Part shown: piece by piece, positions 5,739 to 46,492 of the stretch
How the letters are laid out: each line of letters opens with the position of its first letter
Position numbering within the stretch: position 1 is the first letter of the stretch
Origin: a virus
Lineage: Duplodnaviria; Caudoviricetes
DNA length: 61,036 bases
IMG/VR virus record: IMGVR_UViG_3300050343_000189
Span: 1-61,036 of that record
Strand: one strand, 5' to 3'
Notes under the pieces: generated by a model
Seen by the model: only the letters and a program-made list of their open reading frames with translations
Databases searched by the model: none
Told to the model about the DNA's origin: nothing
Program-made: the position numbers and the translations under genes

Positions 5739-6810
5739 ATGTCTGAATATAAGAAGACTGCACTGGTTCTTGGTGCTGGTGGATTTATTGGAAGTCATAT
5801 GGTTAAACGACTACGTTCAGAAGGATACTGGGTGCGTGGTGTTGATCTTAAGTATCCTGAGTTCTCTGACACAGAAGCAAATGAATTTGTTCAAGGAGAC
5901 TTGCGTGATGTAACTTTTGTTCCGTGTCATTCAGTTTAAAGGTACAAGGTAATTTCTATAACTCTGTTCCTTATCGTTTGTATCCGTCCTTTTGATGAGA
6001 TCTATCAGTTTGCTGCTGATATGGGTGGAGCAGGATTTGTATTCACTGGTGAGAATGATGCAGACATCATGCACAACTCTGTCACTATCAACTTGAATGT
6101 TCTTGAAGAAGTTCGTAAACTGAATGAAACCTTTGATGGTGTAGAGAAGGAACTGGATGAATGTAATCGTCCTGCTTTGGAACAACCTACTAAAATCTTT
6201 CTACTCTGGTTCAGCATGTATGTATCCAGAGCACAATCAACTAGACCCTGATAATCCAGACTGTCGTGAAGAATCAGCATACCCAGCAAACCCAGACTCA
6301 GAATATGGATGGGAGAAACTCTTTCAGTGAGCGTCTCTACTTTGCTTACAATCGCAACCATGGCATCCCTGTTCGGATTGCTAGGTATCACAACATTTTT
6401 GGACCTGAAGGAACCTGGGACGGTGGAAGAGAGAAGGCACCAGCTGCAATCTGCCGTAAAGTTGCTTACCTCCCGGAGTCAGGTGGAGCAATCGAGGTGT
6501 GGGGAGATGGCTTACAAACTCGTTCCTTCCTGTTCATTGACGAATGCATTGAAGCAACTACAGAATGATGAATCAGTGACTTCATGGGACCAGTTAATAT
6601 TGGTTCTGAAGAGATGGTTACTATTAATCAACTTGTAGATACTGCTGCTAAGTTGCTGGTAAAGAAGTCTCTAAGATTCATATTGATGGACCTCTTGGAG
6701 TTCGTGGACGTAACTCTAATAATGATTTGATTCGTGAGAACTTGGTTGGGATTATTCTCAAACTCTTGAAGAGGGTATTCGTAAAACTTATAATTGGATT
6801 GTTTTGTAAG
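5739..6810 (+). CDS. NAD-dependent epimerase/dehydratase (GDP-mannose 3,5-epimerase-like; frameshifted)
   Basis: LVLGAGGFIGSH, AADMGGAGF, YGWEK, RYHNIFGPEGTWDGGREKAPAA, VWGDGLQTRSF. Confidence 0.92.
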
Positions 6811-6858
6811 AAATGATAGAGAACTAGATCCATTTAATAGAGAAAAGTATTTACTAAA

Positions 6859-7700
6859 ATGAAAAATTTTAAACTATTAAATGATACTTTTGTTCACCTT
6901 ACTAATGGGAATAAAGGATATTCAACTCATGGAAAAGAATCTAAGTATATTAAGTGGATTCATGAAGGTGAAGGTAAACAACAACTTACCTTTAATAATC
7001 TAACTCCTGATGATGAAACATTCTATGTTGATAGGTTTATCCCATAGGACTACAAGATAATGTGCAAGTAAGAAGAAATATGCTATTATCTTAGAATGTT
7101 GTTGGATTAGTTAATCCACTTATTGAAGAGATTAAGAATAATCTTGATGCATATGAATGCATATGATAAAATTTTTACTTGGAGTGAAGAACTGTGTGAA
7201 CTTCATGAAGAATTCTGTTGGATTCCTGGCAATGGATCTTGGATTCGTGAACCACAGATCTATCCAAAGGACAAATTAGTTTCTATAATTGCATCTAATA
7301 AGTCTCATCTTCCTGGTCACCAACAGAGAATGCATATGCTAGAACAATTAAAGGACTATGCTCCTTTGTTTGGTCGTGGATTCAATGAAGTAGAATACAA
7401 AGAAGATGCACTAGCAGACTACATGTTCTCAGTTGCTATTGAGAATGCTAATGATTGGTTTACAGTGAAAAAATTCTTGATTGTTTCTTGACTGGAACTA
7501 TTCCAATCTATTATGGTACTCCTAGTATTACCAAGTGGTTTAATACTGATGGTATGATTTTCCTTGAGGATGGATTTGATATTGAAGAACTAGATAAAGA
7601 TCTTTATAAATCTATGGAATCTGCAATCAAAGATAACTTTGAACGTGCAATGAAGATGGAAATGTTAGAGGATTTTATCTGGGAGACTTACTTTGAATAA
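6859..7700 (+). CDS. Glycosyltransferase, GT10 fucosyltransferase-like (frameshifted)
   Basis: YMFSVAIEN...SEKILDCFLTGTIPIYYG. Confidence 0.75.
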
Positions 7701-8400
7701 GATTTGTCTAATACATCATTGGGCTGGTATTGGAGATATCTTTTATCTCCAATCAGTTGCAAAGAAATACATCTCTATGGGGTATGAAATTATCTGGCCT
7801 CTTAGGGATGATATTTTATGGTTAGGTGATTATATTAAAGGTATTACTTTCTGCTCTAAAGAAGATAACTTTCCTGGTAAAGAATACTATGGGCAAGACG
7901 CAGTTATCATTACTCCTAACTTTGTATATCTTGGTATCATGAGACCTCATTTATGGGGTATTGGTGATGATAAGATTATGTCTTCTAAGTATAGTATCTT
8001 GAATATGGATCACACTGACTGGAAGAGTGGGTTTACTTTTGATAGGAAGTTTGATAAAGAGAACGATCTGTATTATAATGTCCTTGGTCTCAAAGATGAT
8101 TCTGAGTTCGTGTTCATCAATAATCTCTACAATGAGAATAGAAATTGTGAACTGATGCGTTCAGAAAACTATGACTTACCTGTCGTAGAACTTCAATACA
8201 TTGATGGATTTACACTGCTTGATTGGTGTAAAGTCTTTGAGAAAGCAAAGAGTGTGTTTACAATCAACACTTCTTTGAATTATATTATTGATACTCTGGA
8301 CACCTCTTATGAGAGATACGTAGTTGTTGCACATAATGAGCAGAATGAGAAAGAGATTGATTACCTTTTCAGCACACCACATGAGATGATATGCAAGTAG
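7693..8400 (+). CDS. Hypothetical protein, possible GT-B glycosyltransferase
   Basis: N-terminal AGIGDIF; located in the sugar island. Confidence 0.6.
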   Translation: MNKICLIHHWAGIGDIFYLQSVAKKYISMGYEIIWPLRDDILWLGDYIKGITFCSKEDNFPGKEYYGQDAVIITPNFVYLGIMRPHLWGIGDDKIMSSKYSILNMDHTDWKSGFTFDRKFDKENDLYYNVLGLKDDSEFVFINNLYNENRNCELMRSENYDLPVVELQYIDGFTLLDWCKVFEKAKSVFTINTSLNYIIDTLDTSYERYVVVAHNEQNEKEIDYLFSTPHEMICK

Positions 8401-8880
8401 TAGAGTATAAAGGAGATACATATCCACACTTTCAAACAATTGGCAATGCATCGCAGTTTGCTATTCCATTTGCTAAACATGTTTGTAGTGGGTATGGATA
8501 TGATATTGGATGTATGAAGAAGGAATGGTCTTTCCCAGATTCTGTTCCTATTGACCTATCATTTGATAATGGATGGGAAGCAGATAATCTTCCACCTGTT
8601 GAACCTGACTACATTTTTTCTAGTCATTGTCTAGAACATGTTCCTGATTGGGTTGCTACAATGGATTATTGGTATGCAAGACTCAAACTGGGAGGTGTTT
8701 TGTTCCTCTATCTTCCTGATTATAGTCAGAAGTATTGGAGACCTTGGAACAATAGAAGACATAAGCACTGCTTGAAACCTGAATTCATTCTATGATTACA
8801 TGATTGATAAGGGATATAAGAATGTCTTTGTATCGGGTATTGATTTAAATAACGCATTTATGATTATGGGGGAAAAATGA
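8391..8880 (+). CDS. Class I SAM-dependent methyltransferase (frameshifted)
   Basis: GYDIGC, DYIFSSHCLEHV, LKLGGVLFLYLP. Confidence 0.85.
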
Positions 8881-9734
8881 AAAAGATTTTAGTTTCTACT
8901 TGGTGTACTGATGATTATGCAGAACTTTTGGGTGTAGAAAAACTAGCTAACTCAATTAAATATTTTCATCCAGAGGTGGATCATGTTATCTTTGATACTA
9001 AGATGACTGAACAGATACATTCTGAAATGCCATGGATGAAACCTATTTGGATGATGGCAGCCACTTGTCTTCCTTTTGTTGAGGAATACGATATGGTTGT
9101 TCATTTGGATGCTGATGCTGTCGTTACTGGACCAATGACCGAGTTCTTTGAGAGTGAAGAAGACATTATTGGGGTTCGAAATAATAACTCTTTAGACAAA
9201 GCATCTGGACATGACTTTGGTATAACAATTACTCATCTTCCACCGTTTGGAAATGGTCAGCAGATTCCAATCCAAAACTTTATCAATGCTGGCATGATTG
9301 GTGCTAACAACAAAGAGTTCTGGGTAGACTGGCACGATGTAAACAAGCAGTCGGCTAAGATTAAAACAGAAGTTAATCCTTATGCTCATGGTATTGGTGA
9401 TGAACAAGATACTCTGAATCAAATATTTCATTCAGGAGAATATACTACTAAGATTGTAGATGCCATGGGATCAAATGTTTCCTATGGTATTTCTAATCAT
9501 TGGGGTAAGAACGATAACCATTGGGAAAGTTGGTCGCAAATTTACGTAAAAGGTGATAGACTATACCTTGATGATCCTAAGACAGGGGAACCGATGTGTA
9601 TTAAAGTCATGCACCAAGCTGGTGGACATGCTGCAGCACAATTAAATAGAGGAGCAGGTGGATTTAGAAATTGGTTGTCCTCTGTTGTATCTGACGAAGT
9701 TAATGACTACTTGAATGAGGTTCAAAATGGTTGA
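8877..9734 (+). CDS. GT-A glycosyltransferase (GT8-like)
   Basis: VVHLDADAVV, INAGM, DEQDTLN, VMHQAG. Confidence 0.75.
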   Translation: MKKILVSTWCTDDYAELLGVEKLANSIKYFHPEVDHVIFDTKMTEQIHSEMPWMKPIWMMAATCLPFVEEYDMVVHLDADAVVTGPMTEFFESEEDIIGVRNNNSLDKASGHDFGITITHLPPFGNGQQIPIQNFINAGMIGANNKEFWVDWHDVNKQSAKIKTEVNPYAHGIGDEQDTLNQIFHSGEYTTKIVDAMGSNVSYGISNHWGKNDNHWESWSQIYVKGDRLYLDDPKTGEPMCIKVMHQAGGHAAAQLNRGAGGFRNWLSSVVSDEVNDYLNEVQNG

Positions 9735-10999
9735 TATTGAAGCACTTCTTGAGGGTGTAAATCCACCCTACTTTGCTAATAGTAAGTGGGAACCAGGCAA
9801 TCCTGTATATTATTCTGGTCCTTACTGGGATAATCAAGAGTTGGGAGCAGCTGTCAATGGACTTCTGAATGGTAAGTGGTTACCATCTGGTGAGAAGGTA
9901 TATGAGTTTGAGAAGAAGTTCTCTAAACAATTTAACAAGGGACACTCTTTGATGGTGAACTCTGGTAGTTCTGCCAACCTGGTTATGATTGCTGCTCTGA
10001 AGAAAAGATTTGGTTGGCAGGATGGTGACGAGATCATTGTGTCATGTGTTGGTTTTCCTACCACCATTGCTCCGATCGTTCAGAATGGTTTGAAACCAGT
10101 CTTTGTTGACATCGACTTCTCTGATCTAAATTGGAGTATTGATGAGATTGAGGAAAAGGTTTCTACTAAGACCCGTGCCCTGTTCTCTTCTCCTGTTCTT
10201 GGTAATTCTTATAACTTAGGTGATGTTCTAGATATCTGTGATCGTAACAAAATCATGTTGATCTCAGATAATTGTGACAGTCTGGGTAGTAAGTGGAATG
10301 GTTCCTTTCTTACTGATCACTCTATTGCTGCTTCTTGTTCTTTTTATCCTGCTCATCATATCTGCACAGGTGAGGGTGGTATGATCTCTTCTGATGATGA
10401 GGAACTGATCAATATTGCCCGTAGTCTGGCATGGTGGGGTCGTGATTGCTATTGTGTAGGTCAGCAGAACCTGCTTGCTTGTGGCACTTGTGGTAAGAGA
10501 TTTGATAAGTGGATTGAGCATTATGATGGTATCATTGATCACAAGTATGTGTATTCTCAGATGGGATACAATCTCAAACCTATGGACTTCCAAGGTGCTA
10601 TTGGCACTGTGCAACTGACTAAACAAGATGAGATTCATCGGTTGCGTCGTAAGAATAAGATTCTGATGCAGGAAATCTTTGAACGTATTCCTGGTGTTCG
10701 TAGTGTGGATGAACTTCCTGAAGCAGAGACCAGTTGGTTTGGTGTCCCTATTATCTGTGATAGTGCGGATACTAAGGTTAGACTGACAAAACATTTGGAG
10801 GATAATAAAGTTCAGACTCGTAACTACTTTGCAGGTAATATTCTGATGCATCCTGGATATAGGCATCTTGATTACTATCGAAACTATCCGAATGCTTGTA
10901 AGGTGCTTGACCTTAGTATTCTTTGTTGGTTGTTCTCCTACAATTACTGAGGATATGATTGAATATGTTGGAACTGTAGTTGATTCTTTTGAGAAATGA
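9727..10999 (+). CDS. rfbH: CDP-4-keto-6-deoxyglucose 3-dehydrase (RfbH/DdhC, DegT/DnrJ family)
   Basis: VNSGSSANL, GFPTT, DNCDSLG, SFYPAHHICTGEGG (His replaces the Schiff-base Lys), WGRDCYC..CG Fe-S motif, DHKYVYS.MGYNLK. Confidence 0.9.
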
Positions 11000-12682
11000 G
11001 AGTAGCAGATTATGTGATCGACCAGATTTACAAGGCAGGTTGTGAACATATCTTCCTTGTAACTGGTGGTGGGAGCGATGTTTTTAAATGATGCAATTGC
11101 TGCTCATGAAAAAATTGAACCAGTTTGTAATCATCATGAACAAGCATGTGCAATGGGTGCAGTCGCATATGCAAAATATAAAAATAGTCTAGGTGCCGTT
11201 TGTGTTACCACAGGATGTGGTGGAACTAATGCAATTACTGGTCTTCTGGATGCATGGCAGGATAGTGTTCCTGTTATTTTTGTGTCTGGCAATGTAAATA
11301 GACCACATATGGCTCCTGCAGGTGTAAGAAATCTTGGAGTTCAGGAAGCAAACATTATTGATATTGTAAAACCAATCACTAAGTATGCAACTGTGGTTGA
11401 AGATCCTGAGATGATTGATGAGGTAATGAAAGATGCGATTCGTATTGCTACTCATGGTCGTCCTGGTCCTGTATGGATCGATATTCCTATGGATGTACAG
11501 GGTGTTGAATGTTTTAGTATTGAGGATGCCGTAAAGAGGGCAAAGAGACCTTTGATTCTTGCTGGTAATGGTATCAACTGTGCTCAAGCAAGAGAAGAGT
11601 TTAAGTTCTTTGTTGACCAGACAAACATTCCAGTTGTTACTTCATACAATGGTGTTGATCTTATTTCCTCTGATGATAGAAACTATGTTGGTAGAGTTGG
11701 AGTAAAGGGAACTCGTTCTGGCAACTTTGCAATGCAAAATTGTGATCTACTTCTTGTGATTGGTTGCCGTCTTCCTGTTCCTGTGACTGGATATAACTAT
11801 AAAACTTTTGCTAGAGAAGCAGAAGTTATTGTTGTTGATATTGATAAGGATGAACACTCAAAGGATACAGTAAAGATTGATAGATTTATTAATCGTGATG
11901 CAAAAAACTTTCTTGATCTTTACTGGTTTGATCGTAGTAAGAGTGATTGGAATTATCTTTGCGAAGAGTGGAAAGAAAAATGGCCAGTGTGTCCTACAGA
12001 AAATTCATCTGAAAAAGTAGATCTCTATTACTTCATGCAATGTCTGAATACTTTAAAGAGAGATGACGATGTTTTAATTTCTGATGCAGGTTCTGCATTC
12101 TATGTTTGTTCTCAAGCAACTACAATTAAAAATCAACAGAGATATATCACATCTAGTTCTCAAGCAGAGATGGGATTTACAATTCCTGCTTGCATTGGTG
12201 CTGCATTTGCCAAGTATGGAGATGTAATTGGTGTAACTGGAGATGGTTCTTTTATGATGAACCTACAAGAACTTCAGACTATCAAACACTACAACCTTCC
12301 TATCAAGTTGTTTGTATGGAATAATGACGGATACCTCTCTATTCGCACAACTCAAAAGAAATTTTTTGAGGGTAGGGAAATCGGAACAGATGCTGAAAGT
12401 GGTGTCTCTATCCCAAGCATCCGTGATGTGGTAAAGAGTTTTGGTATTGAACACATTTATGCTGATGCAAAAGGTCTAGAACATGCAGTTCAAACTACTC
12501 TTGATTGTAGTGGTCCTATTGTATGTGAGGTCCTTTGTGAGAAGTGGCAGGAAGTTGTTCCTACAATGCAAGGTAGAAAAAATGCAGATGGTACGATTAG
12601 CGCACCACCTTTAGAAGATATGTATCCTTTCTTGTCAAGAAAGGAATTTTATGATAACATGATTATTAAGCCCTTAGACTAA
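10996..12682 (+). CDS. ThDP-dependent acetolactate-synthase-like enzyme (YerE-like)
   Basis: MRVADY..GCEHIF.VTGGG, HHEQA, TTGCGGTNAITG, GRPGPVWIDIPMDVQ, GDGSFMMNLQEL..WNNDGY. Confidence 0.92.
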
Positions 12683-12683
12683 T

Positions 12684-13550
12684 ATGCCTGCTGATAATAA
12701 AGATAAGGTAACTATTCTAAAGTTACGCAAACAAAAAAAGAACAAGGTAAAGACTGTTGGTGTTACCGCATATGATTATCCACAAGCATTGATGGCAGAC
12801 AATGCTGGTGTTGATTGGATTCTTGTTGGTGATTCTCTTGGTATGACCACTCTAGGTTACAAGAGCACCATTCCAGTGACTATGGATGATATGCTTCGTT
12901 CTGCTGGAGCAGTGTCCCGTGGTTCTAACCGTGCATTCACTGTAGGGGATATGCCCTATATGTCCTATCAAATTTCTAATGAAGAAGCAGTAAGAAATGC
13001 TGGAGACTTCATCAAGGCAGGTATGGATGCTGTAAAGGTTGAAGGTTGTATGGTAGAACGTATCAAAGCAATCTGTGATTCTGGTATCATGGTGATGAGT
13101 CATCTAGGATTGACCCCGCATACTCGCGCAAAACTGGGTGGATATCGTGTTCAGGGTAAGACTGCTGATCAGGCAAAAGTTATTCTTGATCAGGCACTAC
13201 GCCTTCAAGATGCTGGATGCACTTTCTTACTTCTTGAGGGTATGCCTAGAGAGTCTGCTGAAATGATTGCAACTAACTTAGATATTCCTGTATATGGAAT
13301 TGGTGCTGGAGACAGAGTTGACGGTCAGTTGGTTATTATGCATGACTTGGTTGGACTTTTCTGGGAGTTTAAATCTAAGTTTGTTAAACGTTATTGTGAA
13401 GCAGGTCAAATGATTCAGTCTGCTCTCACTGATTATGTTAATGAAGTTCGAGATCTTCAGTTCCCTGCACAAGAGAACTTCTATGAGATCAAAGATGAAG
13501 AACTTGAAAAACTTTTAGGACAAGGAGCAGGTTGGAAACATGACAAGTAA
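12684..13550 (+). CDS. panB: 3-methyl-2-oxobutanoate hydroxymethyltransferase-like protein
   Basis: TAYDYP, ILVGDSLGM, GDMPYMSY, AVKVEG, HLGLTP, GGYRVQGK, GIGAG, DGQLVIMHD. Confidence 0.95.
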   Translation: MPADNKDKVTILKLRKQKKNKVKTVGVTAYDYPQALMADNAGVDWILVGDSLGMTTLGYKSTIPVTMDDMLRSAGAVSRGSNRAFTVGDMPYMSYQISNEEAVRNAGDFIKAGMDAVKVEGCMVERIKAICDSGIMVMSHLGLTPHTRAKLGGYRVQGKTADQAKVILDQALRLQDAGCTFLLLEGMPRESAEMIATNLDIPVYGIGAGDRVDGQLVIMHDLVGLFWEFKSKFVKRYCEAGQMIQSALTDYVNEVRDLQFPAQENFYEIKDEELEKLLGQGAGWKHDK

Positions 13551-14385
13551 AAAGATTCTTTTCACTGGTGGTAATGGTTTTATTGGTCGTCAGATTATTC
13601 CCTTCATTCAGGAAGCAGGATATGAGATAGTTAGACCCAGATCAACTCAGGTTCGACTTCAGGTTGATGAAGAAGTTGCTACCCTATTTGATGATGGTCA
13701 ACACTATGATGCAATCATTCATGCTGCCATTGTCGGTGGTAGAAGAGATCTTGATGATGATTATAGAGTTCTGTATACTAATCTCAATATGTTTGAGACT
13801 CTGTATAAGTATGTTGATCAGACTGACATGTTCATCAATCTGGATAGTGGTGCATCATATGGTCGTCCTGCTCCCGTTGATGAACCCTCACCAGAAGACT
13901 TTGGTAAAGTTATTCCAAGTGATCCATATGGATTCTCAAAATATGTTATTGCCAAACGTGTATTAGATAATCCAAAGGGTGTGAATCTTCGCATCTTTGG
14001 ATGCTTTGGTGAGCATGAAGAGAGCACACGATTCTTTAACACTAACATCAATCAATATATTGACAAGAAACCTATTCAACTTGTCAAAGATCGGAAGATG
14101 GATTTTATCTTTGCTGATGACCTCTACAAGATTGTTAAGTATTATCTTGATGGTAATTATGGACCCAAAGATGTGAATTGTGTTTATGATCGTAAGTATA
14201 TGCTCAGTGATATTGCTGAGATTATCAATCACTTAGGACCTTACAAGGTTGATATTCAATCTGAAGGACAGCATCCTATATTTCCGTATGTTGGAAAAGC
14301 AAATAACTTGCCTATTGAATATAGTGGTTTAGTAAATGGAATTCGCAAAGTCTATGAAACATATCTTTGTCAACGGAACGTTTGA
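13540..14385 (+). CDS. NAD-dependent sugar epimerase/reductase (extended SDR)
   Basis: FTGGNGFIG, SGASYG, YGFSK, LRIFGCFG. Confidence 0.9.
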   Translation: MTSKKILFTGGNGFIGRQIIPFIQEAGYEIVRPRSTQVRLQVDEEVATLFDDGQHYDAIIHAAIVGGRRDLDDDYRVLYTNLNMFETLYKYVDQTDMFINLDSGASYGRPAPVDEPSPEDFGKVIPSDPYGFSKYVIAKRVLDNPKGVNLRIFGCFGEHEESTRFFNTNINQYIDKKPIQLVKDRKMDFIFADDLYKIVKYYLDGNYGPKDVNCVYDRKYMLSDIAEIINHLGPYKVDIQSEGQHPIFPYVGKANNLPIEYSGLVNGIRKVYETYLCQRNV

Positions 14386-14755
14386 TATTCTACATCGAGG
14401 CCATATTGAACTCCTAAACTATGCAAAAAGTTTAGGAGACTTTTTATTAGTTGGAATTGATACTGATGATAGAGTAAAAGAAAAGAAAGGTCCTACCAGA
14501 CCCATACATAGTCAAGAAGAAAGAAAGTTTTTTCTTGAAAACTTAAAAGCAGTAGATGGTGTCGATACTTTTTCGTGTGACGAAGAGTTAGAATGTATGA
14601 TTAAATCATATAAACCTGATATAATGATTGTAGGATCAGACTGGAAAGGAAAGTCTGTAATTGGATCTTATTATGCTGCTGAACTTAGATTCTTTGATCG
14701 AATAGGTGATTATGCCACAACAAAAACAATTCAAAGTATTATTGATCGGAGATAG
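14354..14755 (+). CDS. Cytidylyltransferase-family nucleotidyltransferase (HldE/RfaE domain II-like)
   Basis: NGTFDILHRGH, VGIDTD, KGPTRPI, KPDIMIVGSDW. Confidence 0.9.
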   Translation: MKHIFVNGTFDILHRGHIELLNYAKSLGDFLLVGIDTDDRVKEKKGPTRPIHSQEERKFFLENLKAVDGVDTFSCDEELECMIKSYKPDIMIVGSDWKGKSVIGSYYAAELRFFDRIGDYATTKTIQSIIDRR

Positions 14756-15462
14756 TTGTATCGATGAATATGTTTATGGGATATGTGAAAGACTTAATCC
14801 AGAAGCACCAGTACCTATTCTTAAGAAAACTAGAGTAAAAACTCAGAAAGGAATGGCATGGAATGTGAGAGAGAATCTCATGTCATTTGGAGTTGAAGTT
14901 TACATTCTTACTCAGGAAGAACAGGATTATAAAACGTAGATTCATTGATGAAAGATATAACCAACAACTTCTTAGAGTTGATGTAGAGGATCCTACTAAA
15001 CCTCTTGATTATGATCTACCAGAAGATAACTTTGATGCCCTTGTCATATCGGATTATGATAAGGGATTTATTACAACTGAAAGAATGTTTCAGTTGGTAG
15101 AATGGTTTGATGGTCCTGTGTTTATCGACAGTAAGAAAAAAGTATTACCTACAGATAATGCATATGTTAAAATAAATGCTGATGAATATTCTAAATTAGA
15201 AACTAAATCTAATAATTTAATTGTGACCAAAGGTTCTGGTGGTGCAGATTACCAAGGTGTAAATTATCCTGGTATTGGAGTGGGAGTATTTGATGTTTGT
15301 GGTGCCGGGGACACTTTCTTATCTGCACTTGTTTACTTTTATCTCCTGTATGCTAAAATAGAGAAAGCAATACCATATGCAAATAAAGCAGCTGCGATTG
15401 CTGTAACACATTTTGGAACCTATGTATTATCTGAGAGGGATGTAAATGAGATATGTGATTGA
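14712..15462 (+). CDS. PfkB-family kinase (HldE/RfaE domain I-like; frameshifted)
   Basis: LIGDSCIDEYVYG..RLNPEAPVP, ISDYDKG, DVCGAGDTF. Confidence 0.9.
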
Positions 15463-15775
15463 TATTGACGGTACTATATGCACTCCAGGTTCCACAGAGG
15501 AGATGAGATATGAACAGGCGATGCCAATTCAGGATCGTATTGATAAAATAAATAAACTATACGAAGAGGGTCATACCATCGTATATCTAACTGCCAGAGG
15601 GATGGGTAGGTATAAAAATAATGCAGACCTGGCAAAAAAAGAATTCTATGAATTTACTGAGATACAATTAAGTTTGTGGGGATGTAAGTATCATCAATTA
15701 TTCCTTGGTAAACCTTCAGCAGACTACTACATAGATGATAAAGGAATCCACTCTGATGACTTCTTCGGAAATTAA
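15446..15775 (+). CDS. Small HAD-family phosphatase
   Basis: IDIDGTIC, YLTARGM, GKP..DYYIDDK. Confidence 0.85.
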   Translation: MRYVIDIDGTICTPGSTEEMRYEQAMPIQDRIDKINKLYEEGHTIVYLTARGMGRYKNNADLAKKEFYEFTEIQLSLWGCKYHQLFLGKPSADYYIDDKGIHSDDFFGN

Positions 15776-16112
15776 GCATGTCCCTAAAGGTTGGGGATAT
15801 GAAAAATGGATTGTAAATACTGATGAGTATTGCGGAAAACTTCTTTTCTTTGATGAAGGGAAAAGATGCTCTTGGCACTATCATAACTTAAAGGATGAAA
15901 CATTTTACCTGCAGTCTGGTAGAATACTTTTGTACTATGGTGATAGTGATGACCTGGCAAAAGCAAATGATTGTATCCTAGAACCAGGAGATAAATTTCA
16001 CATCTATCGTGGACTGAGACATCAGATGATTGCAGTCGAACCATCTGAACTTTTTGAATTTTCCACAGAACATTTTGATGAAGACAGTTATAGAGTAATT
16101 AAAGGAGATTAA
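15756..16112 (+). CDS. Cupin protein (mannose-6-phosphate isomerase-like)
   Basis: VPKGWGYE, SWHYH..KDETFY, GLRHQM. Confidence 0.85.
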   Translation: MTSSEIKHVPKGWGYEKWIVNTDEYCGKLLFFDEGKRCSWHYHNLKDETFYLQSGRILLYYGDSDDLAKANDCILEPGDKFHIYRGLRHQMIAVEPSELFEFSTEHFDEDSYRVIKGD

Positions 16113-16113
16113 T

Positions 16114-17700
16114 ATGAAAGTTGTTATTCCCATGTCTGGTATGAGCCGTAGGTTCATGGATGCTGGATATACAGTGCCGAAATATCTTTTAGAGATTGAT
16201 GGCAAAACTGTCATCGAACATATCATCGACTTGTATCCTAAAGATACTGAGTTTGTCTGTATTCTGAATAGGAAGCATCATGATGAAACAGATGTTGCAG
16301 GTCTCTTACTTCACAAACTCCCTGAAGGATCTTCGATTAGAGTTATTGATCCTCATAAGTTAGGTCCAGTCCATAGTGTTCTTCAGGCATTGAAGGACAT
16401 TGATGATGAAGAACAAGTCATTGTAAATTACTGTGACTTTTCAATGAAGTGGGATTATGATGATTTTGTTTCACATGTTACTGATACGGATTGTGATGGA
16501 TCTGTAATTTCATATACCGGATTCCATCCTCACATGTTGGGTAGTGATAATTATGCTTTCTGTAGACTGAAAGAAGGTTCATTTCAAATTGAAGAGATAC
16601 GTGAGAAGCGACCATTTACTGACGATAAGATGTCAGAGTATGCTTCTACTGGCACTTACTATTTCAAGAAAGGTAAGTATGTTAAGCATTACTTTCAACA
16701 ACTGATTGATGAAGATGTTAATATTAATGGAGAATATTATGTTAGTTTGGTTCACAATCTGATGATCAAGGATGGATTATACAACACTGTATATGAAGTT
16801 CCAAACATGCTTCAGTGGGGAACACCACTAGATGTGAAGATGTATCAGCAGTGGTCTGACTATTATCGAACAGTGATTGTAATGTCAAGAGCAAGTTGAA
16901 ATTGAAGGGATGTGTCACTGCACTTCCTATGGCAGGTGCAGGTAGTAGATTTCCAAGGAGGGATATGGTGTGCCGAAACCATTTCTTATGGTTAATGGTG
17001 AGTACATGGTTGATCAAGCACTTAGATGTCTTCCGGAGACGGATAAAACTATCTTGCATGCTCTTAGAATCTCATATGAGTATGCTGCCACTTGAAGAGT
17101 ATCCAGTAATGTTGTATGGATTGATGACTGTTCTTGAAGGTCAAGCTTGCACAACATCGATGATTGTAGAAAGAGTTGAAGATGACACTCAATTTTACTT
17201 GTCTGCATGTGACAATGGAGCACTTGTATGACTCTGATAAGTTTGCTGATTTGATTGAAGATCAGGATAATGATATCGTTGTCTGGAGTTATAGAAATAA
17301 CTACACAGCACATCACAATCCTAACATGTATTCATGGTTGGATGTTGATGATGAATGAGACTATGTAAGGGTAAAGTAAATGTTAAAAAATTTAGATGGA
17401 GAGAACCCTATAGATGAATATGCTATAGTGGGAACTATGTTCTTTAGCAACAAGAAGGTATATAATAAATCTCTTACAAAATTATTATGAAAAGAATGAG
17501 AAGTAATGGTGAATTTTATGTTGATAGTCTTGTTAAATGTTGCAATTGAGTCAGGATATACTGTAAAGAATTTTGAGATCGATCATTATATTTGTTGGGG
17601 AACACCTAACGATCTCAAGACATATAGATACTGGCAAGAATTTTTTCATAAAGTTGATTGGCATCCTTATGACTATATAAAAGATTACTTTACCAATTAG
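16114..17700 (+). CDS. Two-domain sugar nucleotidyltransferase (frameshifted)
   Basis: IPMSGMSRRF...PKYLL and a second LPMAGAGSRF; NGEYYV/NGEFYV and WGTP motifs each occur twice. Confidence 0.8.
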
Positions 17701-18789
17701 ATATTGGGACCAAGTCCTACGAGAAAAATATCTAGCTACAGGATGAAAAGTGGTAGAACTATTGAAGTTGCATATTTTTCTTGTCCAATTTACTGGACTA
17801 TCAAAACATTATCCATTACCTCTTGTATATTCTTATACAAATAAAAGACTTATATCTTCCCTCAGAGAAAAATTTATGTCTCTTGATAGAGGAACTGTAT
17901 ATGAAACTGGTGACATGAATTATGAGATGAACATGTTCTCTTAGGGAAAACATGTGATGTTCCAATGTTTTACTTTGTGTATAATATGGCAAACTATTAT
18001 CACTTCATATATGATACTTTGCCATATCTCTATTCTTACTTCAATGAAAAATATATTCATCCTGACATGAAATTGCTTGTCAGTCCTCCAGAGGGACAAG
18101 ATGATCTTTATCCTTTTGTGTGGGATAGTCTTGCAATGTTGGGTATCACTAAGAGATGATGTGGTATTTCTTGACACGGATGTGATGTATAATCGTGTAT
18201 GTATTTCATCTTCATTGACACATAACGGTCTATCTAACTGTCCACCTCATAAAGGAGTGTTTGAATATCGTCAATCAGATGGAAGAGTGACTATGTGGGA
18301 CCTGAGAAGATCTATATCTCTCGTCGAACCTGGTTGCATAATACACATCATAACATTGGAACGAACTACACGGAACGCCGTAGATGTGCATCAATGAAGA
18401 TCAAGTTGCACAGATGTTTATTGATCAGGGTTTCAAAGAAGTATTCTGTGAAAACTTGACAATGAAGAAAAGATTGGTATGTTTAGGAATGCAAAGTATG
18501 TTGCAGGTCCAATTGGTGGTGGAATGTGTAATGTCATTATTCTCTCCTCCAGATACTAAAGTTTTCTCAATTAATAGTCCAACTTTCTTTGATGTGAATT
18601 TTAGATTTGGGTATTCTATGGAACATACAGACCTTACTCATTTTGAACATACTGAATTTACTGATCAAGAAAGAAGAGTCTATTGAGAGTGACGGATCAC
18701 TTTCAATCTCTGGAGGACTTAATTCTCCTTGGCAAGTAGATCTAAATAAACTATCCAAATTTTTATGCAAATGGATACCTCAATTTTAG
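17700..18789 (+). CDS. GT61/DUF563-like glycosyltransferase (heavily frameshifted)
   Basis: NYYHFIYDTLP, KIYISRR, INEDQV, GFKEVFCENL. Confidence 0.65.
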
Positions 18790-19438
18790 AACTTGCATGG
18801 GCATTGGGTCCTTACGCCATTTGTGGTGAAGGGTAATGTCTCTGTGAGAGATGATGACAGTTTTTGGATGAAGGCAAGTGGTGCTTCGTTAACCAATCTT
18901 GGAAAATCTGAGATGGTTGCCTGTAAGATGACAGGTGTGCCCTTTGATTCATTGGGACCAAAACCAAGTATTGAAACTGGTTTTCATGCATGGATTTTAA
19001 GAGAGTTTGAAGATATTAATTTTGTAGCTCATACTCATCCAGCAAAGACCATGCAGGTGTTGTGCTCTGAGCAGATCTATTCATTTGCAGATCATAGACT
19101 ATTTCCTGATCAGGTAGTGAGGAATGGTGCTAAGTCTTGTGTAGTTCCTTATGCAATGCCAGGTAAACCTTTACTTGAACAAATTAAAAAGTATGTAACC
19201 TATATTTGTTGAAGAGTATCAATACTTTCCTAAATTGATATTACTTGAAAATCATGGTATAATTGTAGCATCTTCTTCTCATAAAGAATGTATTGCTTCT
19301 ACAATGATGTGTGAAAAATCTGCAGAGATTTTTATTGGATCTAAGGTTCTTGGGCAAACTAATTTCCTTACGAGTGAACAGGTCAGTGAGATAGACAAAT
19401 GTCCCAGTGAAAAACATAGGAGAAAAATGTATCAATGA
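18771..19438 (+). CDS. Class II aldolase/adducin family protein (frameshifted)
   Basis: GNVSVR, MKASG, PSIETGFH, VAHTHP, PYAMPG, LLENHG. Confidence 0.88.
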
Positions 19439-19749
19439 AAGTGTAATTTATGTTGATATTGATGAAACGATTTGTAATCGAGAATCATCTACAGATTTTG
19501 GAACAACTCATGATTACACCAAAGCAAAACCAATTCAAAATAACATTGATAAGATTAACCAATTGTATGATCAAGGAAATACGATTGTGTATTGGACAGC
19601 AAGAGGAAGTAGAAAGCAGATTGATTGGACTAATCTTGACACAGCAACAACTGTCAGACTGGGGATGTAAGTATCATGAACTTCGTGTTGACAAACCATT
19701 TTACGATCTCTTCATTGAAGATAAATCATTACGCATTGAGGAAGTATGA
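19435..19749 (+). CDS. Small HAD-family phosphatase (frameshifted)
   Basis: YVDIDETIC, YWTARG, KPFYDLFIEDK. Confidence 0.8.
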
Positions 19750-20196
19750 GAATTATATCTCACAGAGGTAATGTTCGGGGACGAGTTCCTGGTAGAGAGA
19801 ATGCTCCCAGTTACATTGATTGTGCTCTTGGTAATGGTTATGATGTAGAGATTGATGTATGGGATATTGATGGTGAGTTTTGGTTGGGTCATGATGAACC
19901 ACAATATAAAGTAACTTGGAATTGGTTCTTTAAGAGGCAAGATAATCTCTGGTTGCACTGTAAGAATGTAGAGGCAGCAAAGACTTGTGAAATATTCCAA
20001 TCCTTTTGTCACACTGGTGATCCATATTCATACACATCAAATAAAAAAATTTGGTTACATGATATAGAACAAACTTTTGATGACAAAACTATCATTCCAC
20101 TTGCTTGATTGGGAGATGGTAGATAGTTTTAAAACACATATTAAAGATGAAGTGCCATACGGCATCTGTACAGATTATCCCTACATGTTATCATGA
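19746..20196 (+). CDS. Glycerophosphodiester phosphodiesterase/PLC-like protein
   Basis: IISHRGN, REN, DVEIDVW, LGHD, WLHCKN, GICTDYP. Confidence 0.8.
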
Positions 20197-20287
20197 CAAG
20201 AATTGCACTTTGTTATTCAGGAAGACCAAGAAGTTATCAAGAGTGCCATCAAAATCATAAAGAACACTTTCGTCTAGGTCAAAATGA

Positions 20288-45740: not shown

Positions 45741-46492
45741 ATGCCAGCAAAAAGAAAGACTCAAACTCCAGTCCCATTTGGGATGTCCAATAGACAAATG
45801 AAAAGAAAAAAACCAATCAACTCAGACTTAATGAGGAAGATTGAACCCCTGACAGAAAATCAGGAGGAACTCTTCCGTTGCTATAAGAATGATCAGAACC
45901 TTGTAGCATATGGTGCAGCAGGAACAGGTAAGACCTTTATTACCCTCTACAATGCTCTTAAGGATGTTCTTGATGAAAGGACACCTTATGATAAGATCTA
46001 CCTTGTCAGGTCTCTTGTAGCAACCAGAGAGATTGGTTTTTTACCTGGAGATCATGAAGACAAGTCTTCACTTTATCAAATTCCATATAAGAATATGGTA
46101 AAGTATATGTTTGAGATGCCTACTGATACAGACTTTGAAATGCTGTATGGCAATCTTAAAGCACAAGGAACAATTAGTTTCTGGTCTACTTCTTTTATCC
46201 GTGGTACTACACTTGATAATGCAATTATTATTGTTGATGAATTTCAAAACTTGAATTTTCATGAACTTGATAGTATAATTACAAGGATTGGACAAGAATC
46301 TAAAATCATGTTCTGTGGTGATGCCACTCAATCTGATCTTATTAAATCTGCAGAGAAGAATGGTATTGCAGACTTCATGAGAATTCTTAGAACAATGCCA
46401 TCATGGATATTATTGAGTTTGGTGTTGAAGATATTGTTCGTTCAGGACTCTGTAAAGAATACTTAATTGCAAAAATGGATCTTAATCTATGA
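45741..46492 (+). CDS. phoH: PhoH-family ATPase
   Basis: GAAGTGKT, IGFLPGD, FIRGTTLD, VDEFQN, CGDATQSD. Confidence 0.95.

Follow-up and report, generated by a model that had tools for sequence, protein, structure and literature searches.

A phage gene module pairing PanB with a YerE-like ThDP enzyme: a predicted route to an acyl-branched 3,6-dideoxy sugar

Organization of the module

The stretch of viral DNA analysed here (referred to below as the window, 61,036 nucleotides) comes from a T4-like cyanophage with genes for psbA and psbD. Inside an island of glycosyltransferase genes, four consecutive genes on the + strand at positions 9715–14385 encode an E1/RfbH-type 3-dehydratase, a ThDP-dependent enzyme similar to YerE and JanthE, PanB, and an extended SDR (Table 1). 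The ThDP and panB genes are separated by a 1-nt gap, and the panB and SDR genes overlap by 11 nt. After removal of extra bases from the record, the dehydratase gene overlaps the preceding GT8-like gene by 20 nt and shares an ATGA with the ThDP gene that follows. An earlier reading of this DNA, made from the sequence only, had described four tightly coupled genes in a glycosyltransferase island, and this is borne out by the ORFs, by the Pfam and NCBIfam matches, and by the junctions, although two frame breaks of the record had been missed. The end of the module at 14385 stands as proposed, whereas its start does not, since the first gene begins at 9715 and the proposed position, 9727, is the second in-frame ATG. 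In an intact relative (L010), the dehydratase, ThDP enzyme, PanB, and SDR comprise 427, 561, 288, and 281 residues, respectively.

Table 1. Features of the module and of its surroundings in the window
Feature	Position	Strand	Matches and remarks
Fragmented extended SDR, GDP-fucose-synthase-like	5763..6800	+	Not a clear 4,6-dehydratase
GT8-like glycosyltransferase	8877..9734	+	PF01501 E 1.3e-4, below gathering score
E1/RfbH-type PMP-dependent NDP-4-keto-6-deoxyhexose 3-dehydratase	9715..10999	+	PF01041, NF011936; ORF in record ends at 10950
YerE/JanthE-like ThDP-dependent carboligase	10996..12682	+	PF02776, PF00205, PF02775; ORF in record 11066-12682
PanB (2-oxo acid hydroxymethyltransferase), viral ThDP-linked clade	12684..13550	+	PF02548, TIGR00222, clade, catalytic positions
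Divergent extended SDR, nucleotide-sugar type; candidate for reduction of the side-chain ketone (as YerF/ErwF)	13540..14385	+	PF01370, PF04321
Cytidylyl/adenylyl-transferase, RfaE domain II-like	14336..14755	+	PF01467; TIGR02199 108 bits, under cut-off
PfkB sugar kinase, RfaE domain I-like	14712..15462	+	Frame broken near 14900; intact L010 orthologue (252 aa) TIGR02198 134 bits
Small HAD-like phosphatase	15446-15775	+	L010 orthologue TIGR01689 39 bits, under cut-off
Cupin	15735-16112	+	L010 orthologue PF07883
Double nucleotidyltransferase	16114..17697	+	One 525-aa ORF in L010; three frames here

The two frame breaks within the module are each due to a single base. One extra base near 10915 shifts the frame of the dehydratase gene, the true C terminus of which reaches the TGA at 10997–10999, and an extra G near 11071 shifts that of the ThDP gene, which starts with the ATG at 10996. 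Both bases are missing in four relatives (L004, with 100% identical proteins, as well as L005, L008, and L014) and in the contigs of all four public runs aligned to the stretch. Since these four independent assemblies lack both bases, the dehydratase and ThDP genes are intact in nature, and decay into pseudogenes, which was also considered, is rejected on the evidence of the relatives and runs alike. At least 13 frame breaks relative to L010, spread over ~13 kb of the window, look like errors of the record.

The GT10, GT61, and methyltransferase genes of the island were recognized via L010. A GT8 orthologue is found upstream of the dehydratase gene in 24 of the 80 viral loci compared below. 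L010 also has a gene of the class II aldolase/adducin family ~5 kb downstream, outside the conserved core.

The dehydratase and the SDR

The ORF at 9715–10950 matches PF01041 with an E value of 3e-68. NF011936 (RfbH), scored on this shortened ORF of the record, gives 341 bits, below its cut-off of 423. The closest solved structure, with the intact L010 orthologue as the query, is that of Yersinia E1 (3bcx, 253 bits). The lysine that binds PLP is replaced by histidine (SFYPAHHICTGEGG, aligned to SFYPAHHITMGEGG of E1), with the His motif SFYPAHH, and the entry for the H220K mutant (3bb8) has a lysine at the aligned Schiff-base position. The Cys-rich motif WGRDCYC...C..C, aligned to WGRDCYCAPGCDNTC of E1, contains cysteines that we take to be the ligands of a [2Fe-2S] cluster. 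With both its Schiff-base histidine and its Cys-rich motif, the DegT protein is thus an E1/RfbH-type dehydratase, in agreement with its original assignment to RfbH. Histidine occupies the Schiff-base position in all 65 DegT proteins located near the module in different loci; 50 of them have a Cys motif like that of E1, and the other 15 resemble ColD. Dehydratases of these types are described as producing the 4-keto-3,6-dideoxy acceptor that is used by YerE (PMC9306805).

No clear 4,6-dehydratase was found in the window, where only fragmentary GDP-fucose-synthase-like SDRs are present, and TIGR02622 gave only weak matches (65–83 bits) in three of six related records; nor was an E3-type reductase noticed in the lineage of the window, which speaks against the proposed pathway. 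In lineages B and D, an SDR resembling dTDP-glucose-4,6-dehydratase (~300 bits) adjoins the module. The SDR of the module itself matches PF01370 and PF04321, and a search of the PDB returned weak matches only, with no close characterised relative.

The ThDP-dependent enzyme

The window protein contains three ThDP domains (PF02776, PF00205, and PF02775), as well as the motifs GDGSFMMN...NN and HEQ, the former presumably binding ThDP and the latter presumably providing the catalytic Glu. When ranked against solved structures alone, the protein is nearest to JanthE (8rph, 355 bits), followed by PpYerE (5ahk, 227 bits), whereas the best AHAS reaches ~207 bits. JanthE, and then PpYerE, precede every AHAS in three divergent lineages (the window, L029, and L046), the JanthE scores of the latter two being 298 and 307 bits. 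Acetolactate synthase names of NCBIfam do match the protein, every one of them under its cut-off. Among solved enzymes, it thus resembles the YerE-like ones more than any acetolactate synthase, as had been suspected.

JanthE from Janthinobacterium sp. HH01 is the closest solved relative of the viral enzyme, although its ThDP motif is CDG (PMC12247030), whereas the viral one is the canonical GDG. JanthE accepts pyruvate among several donors, and its physiological substrates are unknown (PMC12188165).

PanB

The PanB protein matches PF02548 over the full length of the model (323 bits, positions 1–258 of 259) and scores 278 bits with the equivalog TIGR00222, above the cut-off of 208. Residues D50, S51, D89, K118, E120, H140, and E185, which we take to be the catalytic residues of PanB, are invariant across the 106 rows compared. 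The phylogeny, put forward by the sequence-only reading as a way of telling this protein from housekeeping enzymes, places it in a clade that comprises 40 of the 106 rows (SH-aLRT 100), is ThDP-linked, and lies far from the housekeeping PanBs of Prochlorococcus and Pelagibacter. Judged by this tree, the window PanB is not host-derived. Four of five genomes or bins that hold a copy of the module type have a second, housekeeping PanB.

Several substitutions located beside the catalytic residues are fixed in the viral clade (V119, S139, H146, T147, R148, M187, and V217). Position 146 is occupied by His in this clade and by Gln in all 62 housekeeping rows (Q146H). Because these substitutions are fixed so close to the catalytic residues, the substrate or cofactor of viral PanB may differ from that of the canonical enzyme. 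Residues I206, L216, and I218 correspond to I202, I212, and V214, which were engineered as hot-spots in E. coli KPHMT (PMC7610986). Viral and housekeeping rows do not differ at these three positions, which therefore provide no clue to specificity. E. coli KPHMT converts many 2-oxo acids to 4-hydroxy-2-oxo acids (PMC7610986, PMC11331486). The housekeeping enzymes (E. coli, 1m3u; N. meningitidis, 1o66) and viral PanB have a common fold and catalytic positions; however, the viral proteins form their own clade, carry Q146H and the other substitutions, are always accompanied by a ThDP partner, and have no pan genes nearby.

Conservation of the linkage

The ThDP gene adjoins panB in all 80 viral loci compared (the best 80 of 120 confirmed matches), which are partly redundant and originate throughout from marine or aquatic metagenomes, versus one of 76 cellular loci outside the viral-type clade (Chloroflexi, L089). 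When the rows are dereplicated at 93% identity, each of the 40 PanBs of the viral type is ThDP-linked, and the linkage is thus conserved elsewhere. An SDR of the window family lies within the fetched flanks of 77 of the 80 loci.

Across 78 loci, PanB identity ranges from 67 to 100% and that of the ThDP enzyme from 27.5 to 100%. In 36 pairs, PanB is at least 86% identical, yet the ThDP enzymes share less than 45%; the two genes are found in either order. Since PanB stays similar while its partner diverges, the pattern fits a role of PanB as the constant part, supplying a small molecule to differing sugar scaffolds.

No match to PanC, IlvD, KARI_C, or ApbA/PanE is present within the window, which covers ~32% of a genome, confirming the reported lack of panC, panE, ilvC, and ilvD from it. 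PanC and IlvD are also absent from each of the 12 other viral records with the module that were searched, and two of these are at least 90% complete.

Proposed pathway and alternatives

Because the PanB–ThDP pair sits in a sugar island and recurs in all related viral loci checked, a branched sugar, not a vitamin, is its most likely product. Those checks proposed with the sequence-only reading that could be made by computation all turned out in favor of its interpretation. The reading that we favor, with a probability of roughly 0.55, is a viral pathway to a 3,6-dideoxy sugar with an acyl branch at C-4, for which PanB would supply the branch; its chemical steps, the donor, and the destination of the sugar are predicted from gene content. 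The E1/RfbH-type dehydratase, relying on PMP, with His in place of Lys and an Fe–S-type Cys motif, would remove the oxygen at C-3 of an NDP-4-keto-6-deoxy sugar. PanB would hydroxymethylate a 2-oxo acid of the host, most simply 3-methyl-2-oxobutanoate, yielding ketopantoate, a 4-hydroxy-2-oxo acid. The YerE/JanthE-like enzyme would then decarboxylate this product and attach the resulting acyl-anion equivalent to the sugar nucleotide at its C-4 ketone, the extended SDR would reduce the new ketone of the side chain, and neighboring glycosyltransferases would transfer the sugar to an acceptor. For a destination on the virion or host surface, no support was seen beyond these glycosyltransferases. 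Ketopantoate has a quaternary carbon beside its keto group, and no published test of it with a ThDP carboligase was found; for these reasons, a less hindered acid may be the actual donor. We know of no sugar with such a branch.

Similar gene clusters, brought together in the unifying scheme for acyl-branched sugars (PMC9306805), are those for erwiniose (ErwE/ErwF/ErwI/ErwJ), caryophyllose (MMAR_2331–2333), and gastriose (MyGE/MygF/MygI). They share with the viral module a 3-dehydratase route to an NDP-4-keto-3,6-dideoxy sugar, a YerE-like ThDP carboligase, an NAD(P)H reductase, and an adjacent enzyme that makes, or here would make, a 4-hydroxy-2-oxo acid; ErwE rejects pyruvate and favors 4-hydroxy-2-oxo acids from the adjacent aldolase. 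In those clusters, the donor is made by a pyruvate aldolase, whereas its place beside the viral ThDP enzyme is taken by PanB, a folate-dependent enzyme (PF02548) of the PEP-mutase/ICL superfamily. In the branch expected here there would be a gem-dimethyl or hydroxymethyl pattern, unreported among those sugars, and the carriers, unlike those of the described clusters, are phages. The balance tips slightly towards the module being a variant of the published scheme for acyl-branched sugars in which PanB replaces the aldolase, and no published description of such a variant was found.

The pathway to yersiniose A in Yersinia pseudotuberculosis (DdhC (E1)–YerE–YerF) likewise has a His/Fe–S dehydratase just upstream of the ThDP enzyme and a reductase downstream, but YerE works with pyruvate and without a PanB partner, and JanthE is a closer relative of the viral enzyme than PpYerE is. 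The viral ThDP enzyme might similarly add a C2 unit from pyruvate, with PanB either hydroxymethylating the acetyl branch after coupling or serving an unrelated step of the island. The dehydratase, ThDP enzyme, and SDR alone would indeed follow the logic of DdhC–YerE–YerF (PMC9306805), and the nearest solved relative, JanthE, has pyruvate among its donors (PMC12188165). We nevertheless regard this as unlikely, since PanB occurs without the ThDP enzyme in none of the 80 loci, and since it remains 67–100% identical while the dehydratases (E1-type or ColD-type) and ThDP lineages are swapped, which argues for a small-molecule substrate. Moreover, its full-length PF02548 match contains no insertion that might be expected to accommodate a nucleotide sugar.

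Similarly doubtful is the possibility that the joint product of PanB, the ThDP enzyme, and the SDR is a free branched compound (a hydroxy acid, an aldehyde, or an acyloin), which becomes linked to a glycan later on, through an ester, amide, or ketal. Ketopantoate could, for example, be the acceptor of an AHAS-like reaction or be decarboxylated to hydroxypivaldehyde, and in lineage B, where genes for NeuB, a CMP-transferase-like protein, an MptE-like protein, and a class III aminotransferase adjoin the module, the product could decorate a nonulosonic acid. In the lineage of the window, however, neither an acyl-activating enzyme nor an ATP-grasp ligase or an acyltransferase was seen; the DegT proteins, being dehydratases and not aminotransferases, would provide no amino group for an amide; and the SDR belongs to the nucleotide-sugar type.

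Viral PanB has so far been viewed as a vitamin-related AMG: pantoate transferase was the most abundant of these in one virome study (PMC8940887), PanB has been noted in prasinoviruses (PMC6851583), and a prasinovirus acetolactate synthase has been assigned to amino-acid synthesis (PMC5371798). That the module boosts host cofactors in this way, by means of an acetolactate synthase, ketopantoate made by PanB as a precursor of CoA and pantothenate, and the SDR as ketopantoate reductase, seems very improbable despite the equivalog-level score and intact catalytic positions of PanB and the sub-threshold acetolactate synthase names of its partner, since in three lineages the partner resembles YerE-like enzymes more closely than AHAS, PanC, IlvD, KARI, and ApbA are missing from the window and PanC and IlvD from the 12 other records, the SDR is not an ApbA-type reductase, sugar genes with His-type 3-dehydratases (65 of 65) always surround the module, and PanB is not host-derived.

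The branched-sugar pathway can be extended to a broader, tentative proposal, which we place somewhat below even odds. Viral PanB, now counted in ocean viromes as a pantothenate AMG, might be a portable side-chain cassette. It would make ketopantoate or, if it functions as a class II aldolase, longer hydroxy-2-oxo acids of the gem-dimethyl kind, and YerE-like enzymes that can replace one another would join these acids to 4-keto-3,6-dideoxy sugars of the CDP or GDP type. With the resulting neopentyl-type branched sugars, a family not known from chemical analysis, T4-like phages that infect marine cyanobacteria and other plankton would remodel surface glycans. If PanB is one half of a sugar-branching pair, the vitamin and CoA interpretations of viral PanB need revision. 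A new class of branched deoxysugars and of carboligases would then have been predicted from sequence alone, the unifying scheme would gain a second, folate-type route to the donor acid, and ketone-accepting ThDP enzymes with hindered donors would become available for biocatalysis. The module would also represent a variable and widespread glycan trait in marine phage–host interactions.

Carriers and occurrence

A prasinovirus or giant algal virus as the carrier was considered and set aside. No NCLDV capsid match was obtained in five large module-bearing contigs, which is a weak negative because the control for that family matched nowhere; T4-type gp23 is present in three of the five. Deposited phage genomes contained no true counterpart: PanB matches do not exceed 46% identity and lie mostly in bacterial-looking records, and ThDP matches, labelled acetolactate synthase, do not exceed 32%. 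Microcystis phage MaAM05 has panB together with panC and suf genes. In a search of metagenome proteins, at least 120 relatives of PanB with at least 76% identity are found among the matches listed, and the stretch itself was detected in runs from 13 studies. One run from an RNA library yielded contigs that cover parts of all four genes, which could be explained by DNA carry-over.

Organization of the module and its reading frames

The 61,036-base IMG/VR virus fragment, with a completeness of about 32%, carries baseplate genes together with psbA, psbD, and a PhoH-like gene, the latter three being typical auxiliary genes of cyanomyoviruses. Because of this gene content, as well as of a DNA identity of about 70% between its dehydratase gene and genes of Synechococcus myoviruses, the source is judged to be a T4-like cyanophage. 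T4-type gp23 is found in three of five large records that bear the module, and in the window more glycosyltransferases and methyltransferases flank it on either side.

Features of the window discussed in the text
Feature	Position	Strand	Basis
GT8-like glycosyltransferase	8877-9734	+	ORF listing, family scans
DegT/RfbH-like protein (dehydratase)	from 9715	+	ORF listing, family scans
Three-domain ThDP enzyme	between DegT/RfbH-like gene and PanB	+	ORF listing, family scans
PanB	12684-13550	+	ORF listing, family scans
Extended SDR	13540-14385	+	ORF listing, family scans
RfaE-II-like nucleotidyltransferase, PfkB kinase, small HAD-like phosphatase, cupin, double nucleotidyltransferase	after SDR	+	ORF listing, family scans
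psbA	36881-37879		matches photosystem II D1 PHROG
psbD	38308-39363		matches photosystem II D1 PHROG
PhoH-like gene	45741-46466

The four tightly coupled genes described by the sequence-only reading are confirmed, with the correction that the dehydratase and ThDP frames are broken in the record, the former ending at 10950 and the latter being readable only from 11066. Reading of the DNA and alignment with four relatives place one surplus base near 10915 and another near 11071; with both removed, the dehydratase extends to the TGA at 10997-10999 and the ThDP enzyme starts with the ATG at 10996, creating an ATGA overlap. Both bases are missing from the contigs of all four public runs (three DNA libraries and one RNA library). 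In L010, an intact relative, the dehydratase, ThDP enzyme, PanB, and SDR comprise 427, 561, 288, and 281 residues, respectively. With L010 as the reference, at least 13 frame breaks fall at about 6.8–20.2 kb of the window (6800-20200), affecting the genes of GT10, a methyltransferase, RfbH, the ThDP enzyme, PfkB, the double nucleotidyltransferase, GT61, a class II aldolase, HAD, and one other gene, which suggests that the record is indel-prone. The comparison with other public assemblies covered the two breaks within 9700-14400, and the breaks are read as probable errors of the record rather than as gene decay.

The region 9700-14400 is nearly complete in 14 DNA runs (share of words 0.89-0.95), and 61% of its words are present in an oligo-dT RNA library. 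The runs carrying it span 13 metagenome studies (seawater and viral); therefore, this phage lineage is widespread.

Two features of the island concern its other genes. The double nucleotidyltransferase, whose two domains share a single 525-aa ORF in L010 (10439-12016), is spread over three frames in the window (16114-17697), and the small HAD-like phosphatase occurs twice (15446-15775 and 19443-19746), with about 46-56% protein identity between the copies.

Identity of the four proteins

The solved structure that matches the dehydratase best is that of Yersinia E1 (3bcx, 253 bits), followed by ColD. The protein carries SFYPAHH at the site of the aminotransferase Lys and retains the Cys-rich stretch of E1, WGRDCYC..C..C. 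A His occupies the Schiff-base position in all 65 DegT proteins found near the module; 50 of them carry the E1-like Cys motif, the other 15 resemble ColD, and none is an aminotransferase. On these grounds we infer that deoxygenation of a 4-keto-6-deoxy sugar nucleotide at C-3 belongs to the conserved chemistry. The product of such a reaction is the acceptor of YerE and the proposed acceptor for ErwE, MMAR_2332, and MyGE (PMC9306805). No clear 4,6-dehydratase was found for the arrangement of the window (A), in which genes of heptose-type activation stand after the SDR.

The ThDP enzyme, with a canonical GDG motif, scores 355 bits with JanthE (8rph), 227 bits with PpYerE (5ahk), and about 207 bits with the top acetolactate synthase. 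Two papers describe JanthE as YerE-like and give its physiological substrates as unknown (PMC12188165, PMC12247030). The ThDP enzymes of arrangements A, C, and D have only about one third of their residues in common, and each of them scores JanthE and PpYerE over acetolactate synthase.

The PanB of the window lies above the TIGR00222 equivalog cut-off and retains all positions invariant across 106 PanB rows. In the viral clade, fixed changes adjoin catalytic residues, namely V119, S139, H146, T147, R148, M187, and V217, with H146 replacing a Gln that is invariant in all 62 housekeeping and all 4 sister rows. In turn, the SDR is divergent and of nucleotide-sugar type, and no close characterised relative of it was found.

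Linkage of PanB with the ThDP enzyme

With the PanB protein as query, 120 relatives were confirmed in IMG/VR, of which the best 80, with 71-100% identity, were retained. In the neighbourhood search that had been proposed for rfbH–yerE–panB, the linkage of PanB with the ThDP enzyme proved to be conserved, the two being neighbours in 80/80 of these best loci. Clustering of all their ORFs assigned PanB to 80, the ThDP enzyme to 78, the SDR to 77, and DegT to 65 of the 80; the two ThDP misses are one split gene and one contig end, and the enzyme is visible at both on the locus view.

Gene arrangements around PanB in viral loci
Arrangement	Genes
A (window)	GT8, E1-type dehydratase, ThDP, PanB, SDR, then sugar-activation genes
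B	ThDP, PanB, SDR, E1-type dehydratase, 4,6-dehydratase, then MptE-like, NeuB, CMP-transferase-like, aminotransferase
C	B12-binding radical SAM, PanB, ThDP, RmlC-like epimerase, radical SAM/SPASM protein, ColD-type dehydratase
D	ColD-type or E1-type dehydratase, 4,6-dehydratase, ThDP, PanB, SDR

Across 78 loci, identity is 67-100% for PanB and 27.5-100% for the ThDP enzyme, and 36 pairs combine a PanB identity of at least 86% with a ThDP identity below 45%, with the gene order either way. PanB is thus the constant element, with the sugar-handling enzymes swapped around it, a pattern consistent with its supplying a single small molecule.

PanB of cellular genomes and phylogeny

The PanB query was also run against one genome per prokaryote species, and 80 loci were retained. 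Four of them (71-74% identity), from a Prochlorococcus single-cell assembly and three bins, have a ThDP neighbour, and their contigs look viral. Among the remaining 76, the pair occurs once, in a Chloroflexi bin (L089, 58% identity), in the order ThDP, PanB, ColD-like His-type DegT, SDR, NUDIX, B12 radical SAM, and methyltransferase. Four of five genomes with a module-type PanB have a second copy of housekeeping type.

In a maximum-likelihood tree of 106 PanB rows (quick search, LG+G4, midpoint root only for drawing), the protein stands apart from housekeeping PanB, in agreement with the sequence-only reading: all 40 viral-type rows form a single clade (SH-aLRT 100), with cellular loci L088 to L091 as its closest neighbours. 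The housekeeping proteins of Prochlorococcus and Pelagibacter lie outside this clade and far off, on long branches that make their exact placement unsure.

In several loci of Bacillota and Syntrophobacter (L095, L096, L128, L137, L162), two to three PanB paralogues share a stretch of 8 kb, and one set of paralogues forms its own well-supported clade. The sole match in a cultured phage, Microcystis phage MaAM05 (L173, 263312-266471), was rejected as a viral module; panC and a suf operon adjoin it, and the region looks like cellular housekeeping DNA.

Proposed pathway

Viral PanB has been interpreted as a gene of pantothenate or CoA synthesis (PMC6851583, which names the prasinoviruses OlV7, OlV2, OlV5, OlV6, and OtV-2; PMC8940887), and a prasinovirus acetolactate synthase as one of amino-acid synthesis (PMC5371798). 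In the window, about 32% of the genome, there is no match to PanC, IlvD, KARI, or ApbA, and PanC and IlvD have none in 12 viral records with the module, of which two reach a completeness of 90% or more. In full-text searches of literature with few subscription journals, no paper was found that joins PanB with a YerE-like or acetolactate-synthase-like enzyme; the single match for ketopantoate together with YerE was a general review that keeps them apart.

The branched-sugar interpretation put forward from the sequence is backed by every computable test, and its chemistry is proposed here. In the published scheme for acyl-branched sugars, a 4-hydroxy-2-oxo acid is made by an aldolase whose gene adjoins that of the ThDP enzyme, and ErwE favours such acids and refuses pyruvate; dihydro-2H-pyran-3(4H)-one served as a surrogate ketone in that work (PMC9306805). 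KPHMT (PanB) of E. coli makes 4-hydroxy-2-oxo acids from many 2-oxo acids, even with aldoses as electrophiles (PMC7610986). Since PanB makes exactly the class of compounds favoured by ErwE, we propose that, whereas the donor acid of the published scheme comes from the aldolase, PanB would take this place in the viral module. The 3-dehydratase would act on the sugar nucleotide, PanB would provide the donor acid, in the simplest case ketopantoate, the ThDP enzyme would add it at C-4, the SDR would reduce the product, and the glycosyltransferases adjoining the module would transfer the sugar. Ketopantoate would be a sterically demanding donor. In practical terms, an abundant 'vitamin' gene of viruses probably belongs with the glycan genes.

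Two arrangements have additional genes beside the module. In arrangement B (L050, 11056-14798), it adjoins MptE-like, NeuB, CMP-transferase-like, and class III aminotransferase genes, a set of nonulosonic-acid type; a sugar of this kind might there be decorated with the branch or with the corresponding acid. In arrangement C, a B12-binding radical SAM protein is encoded directly upstream of PanB (L029, 5431-6999), and one is also present in the Chloroflexi locus (L089, 6014-7528); methylation of the side chain or of a precursor may be its role.
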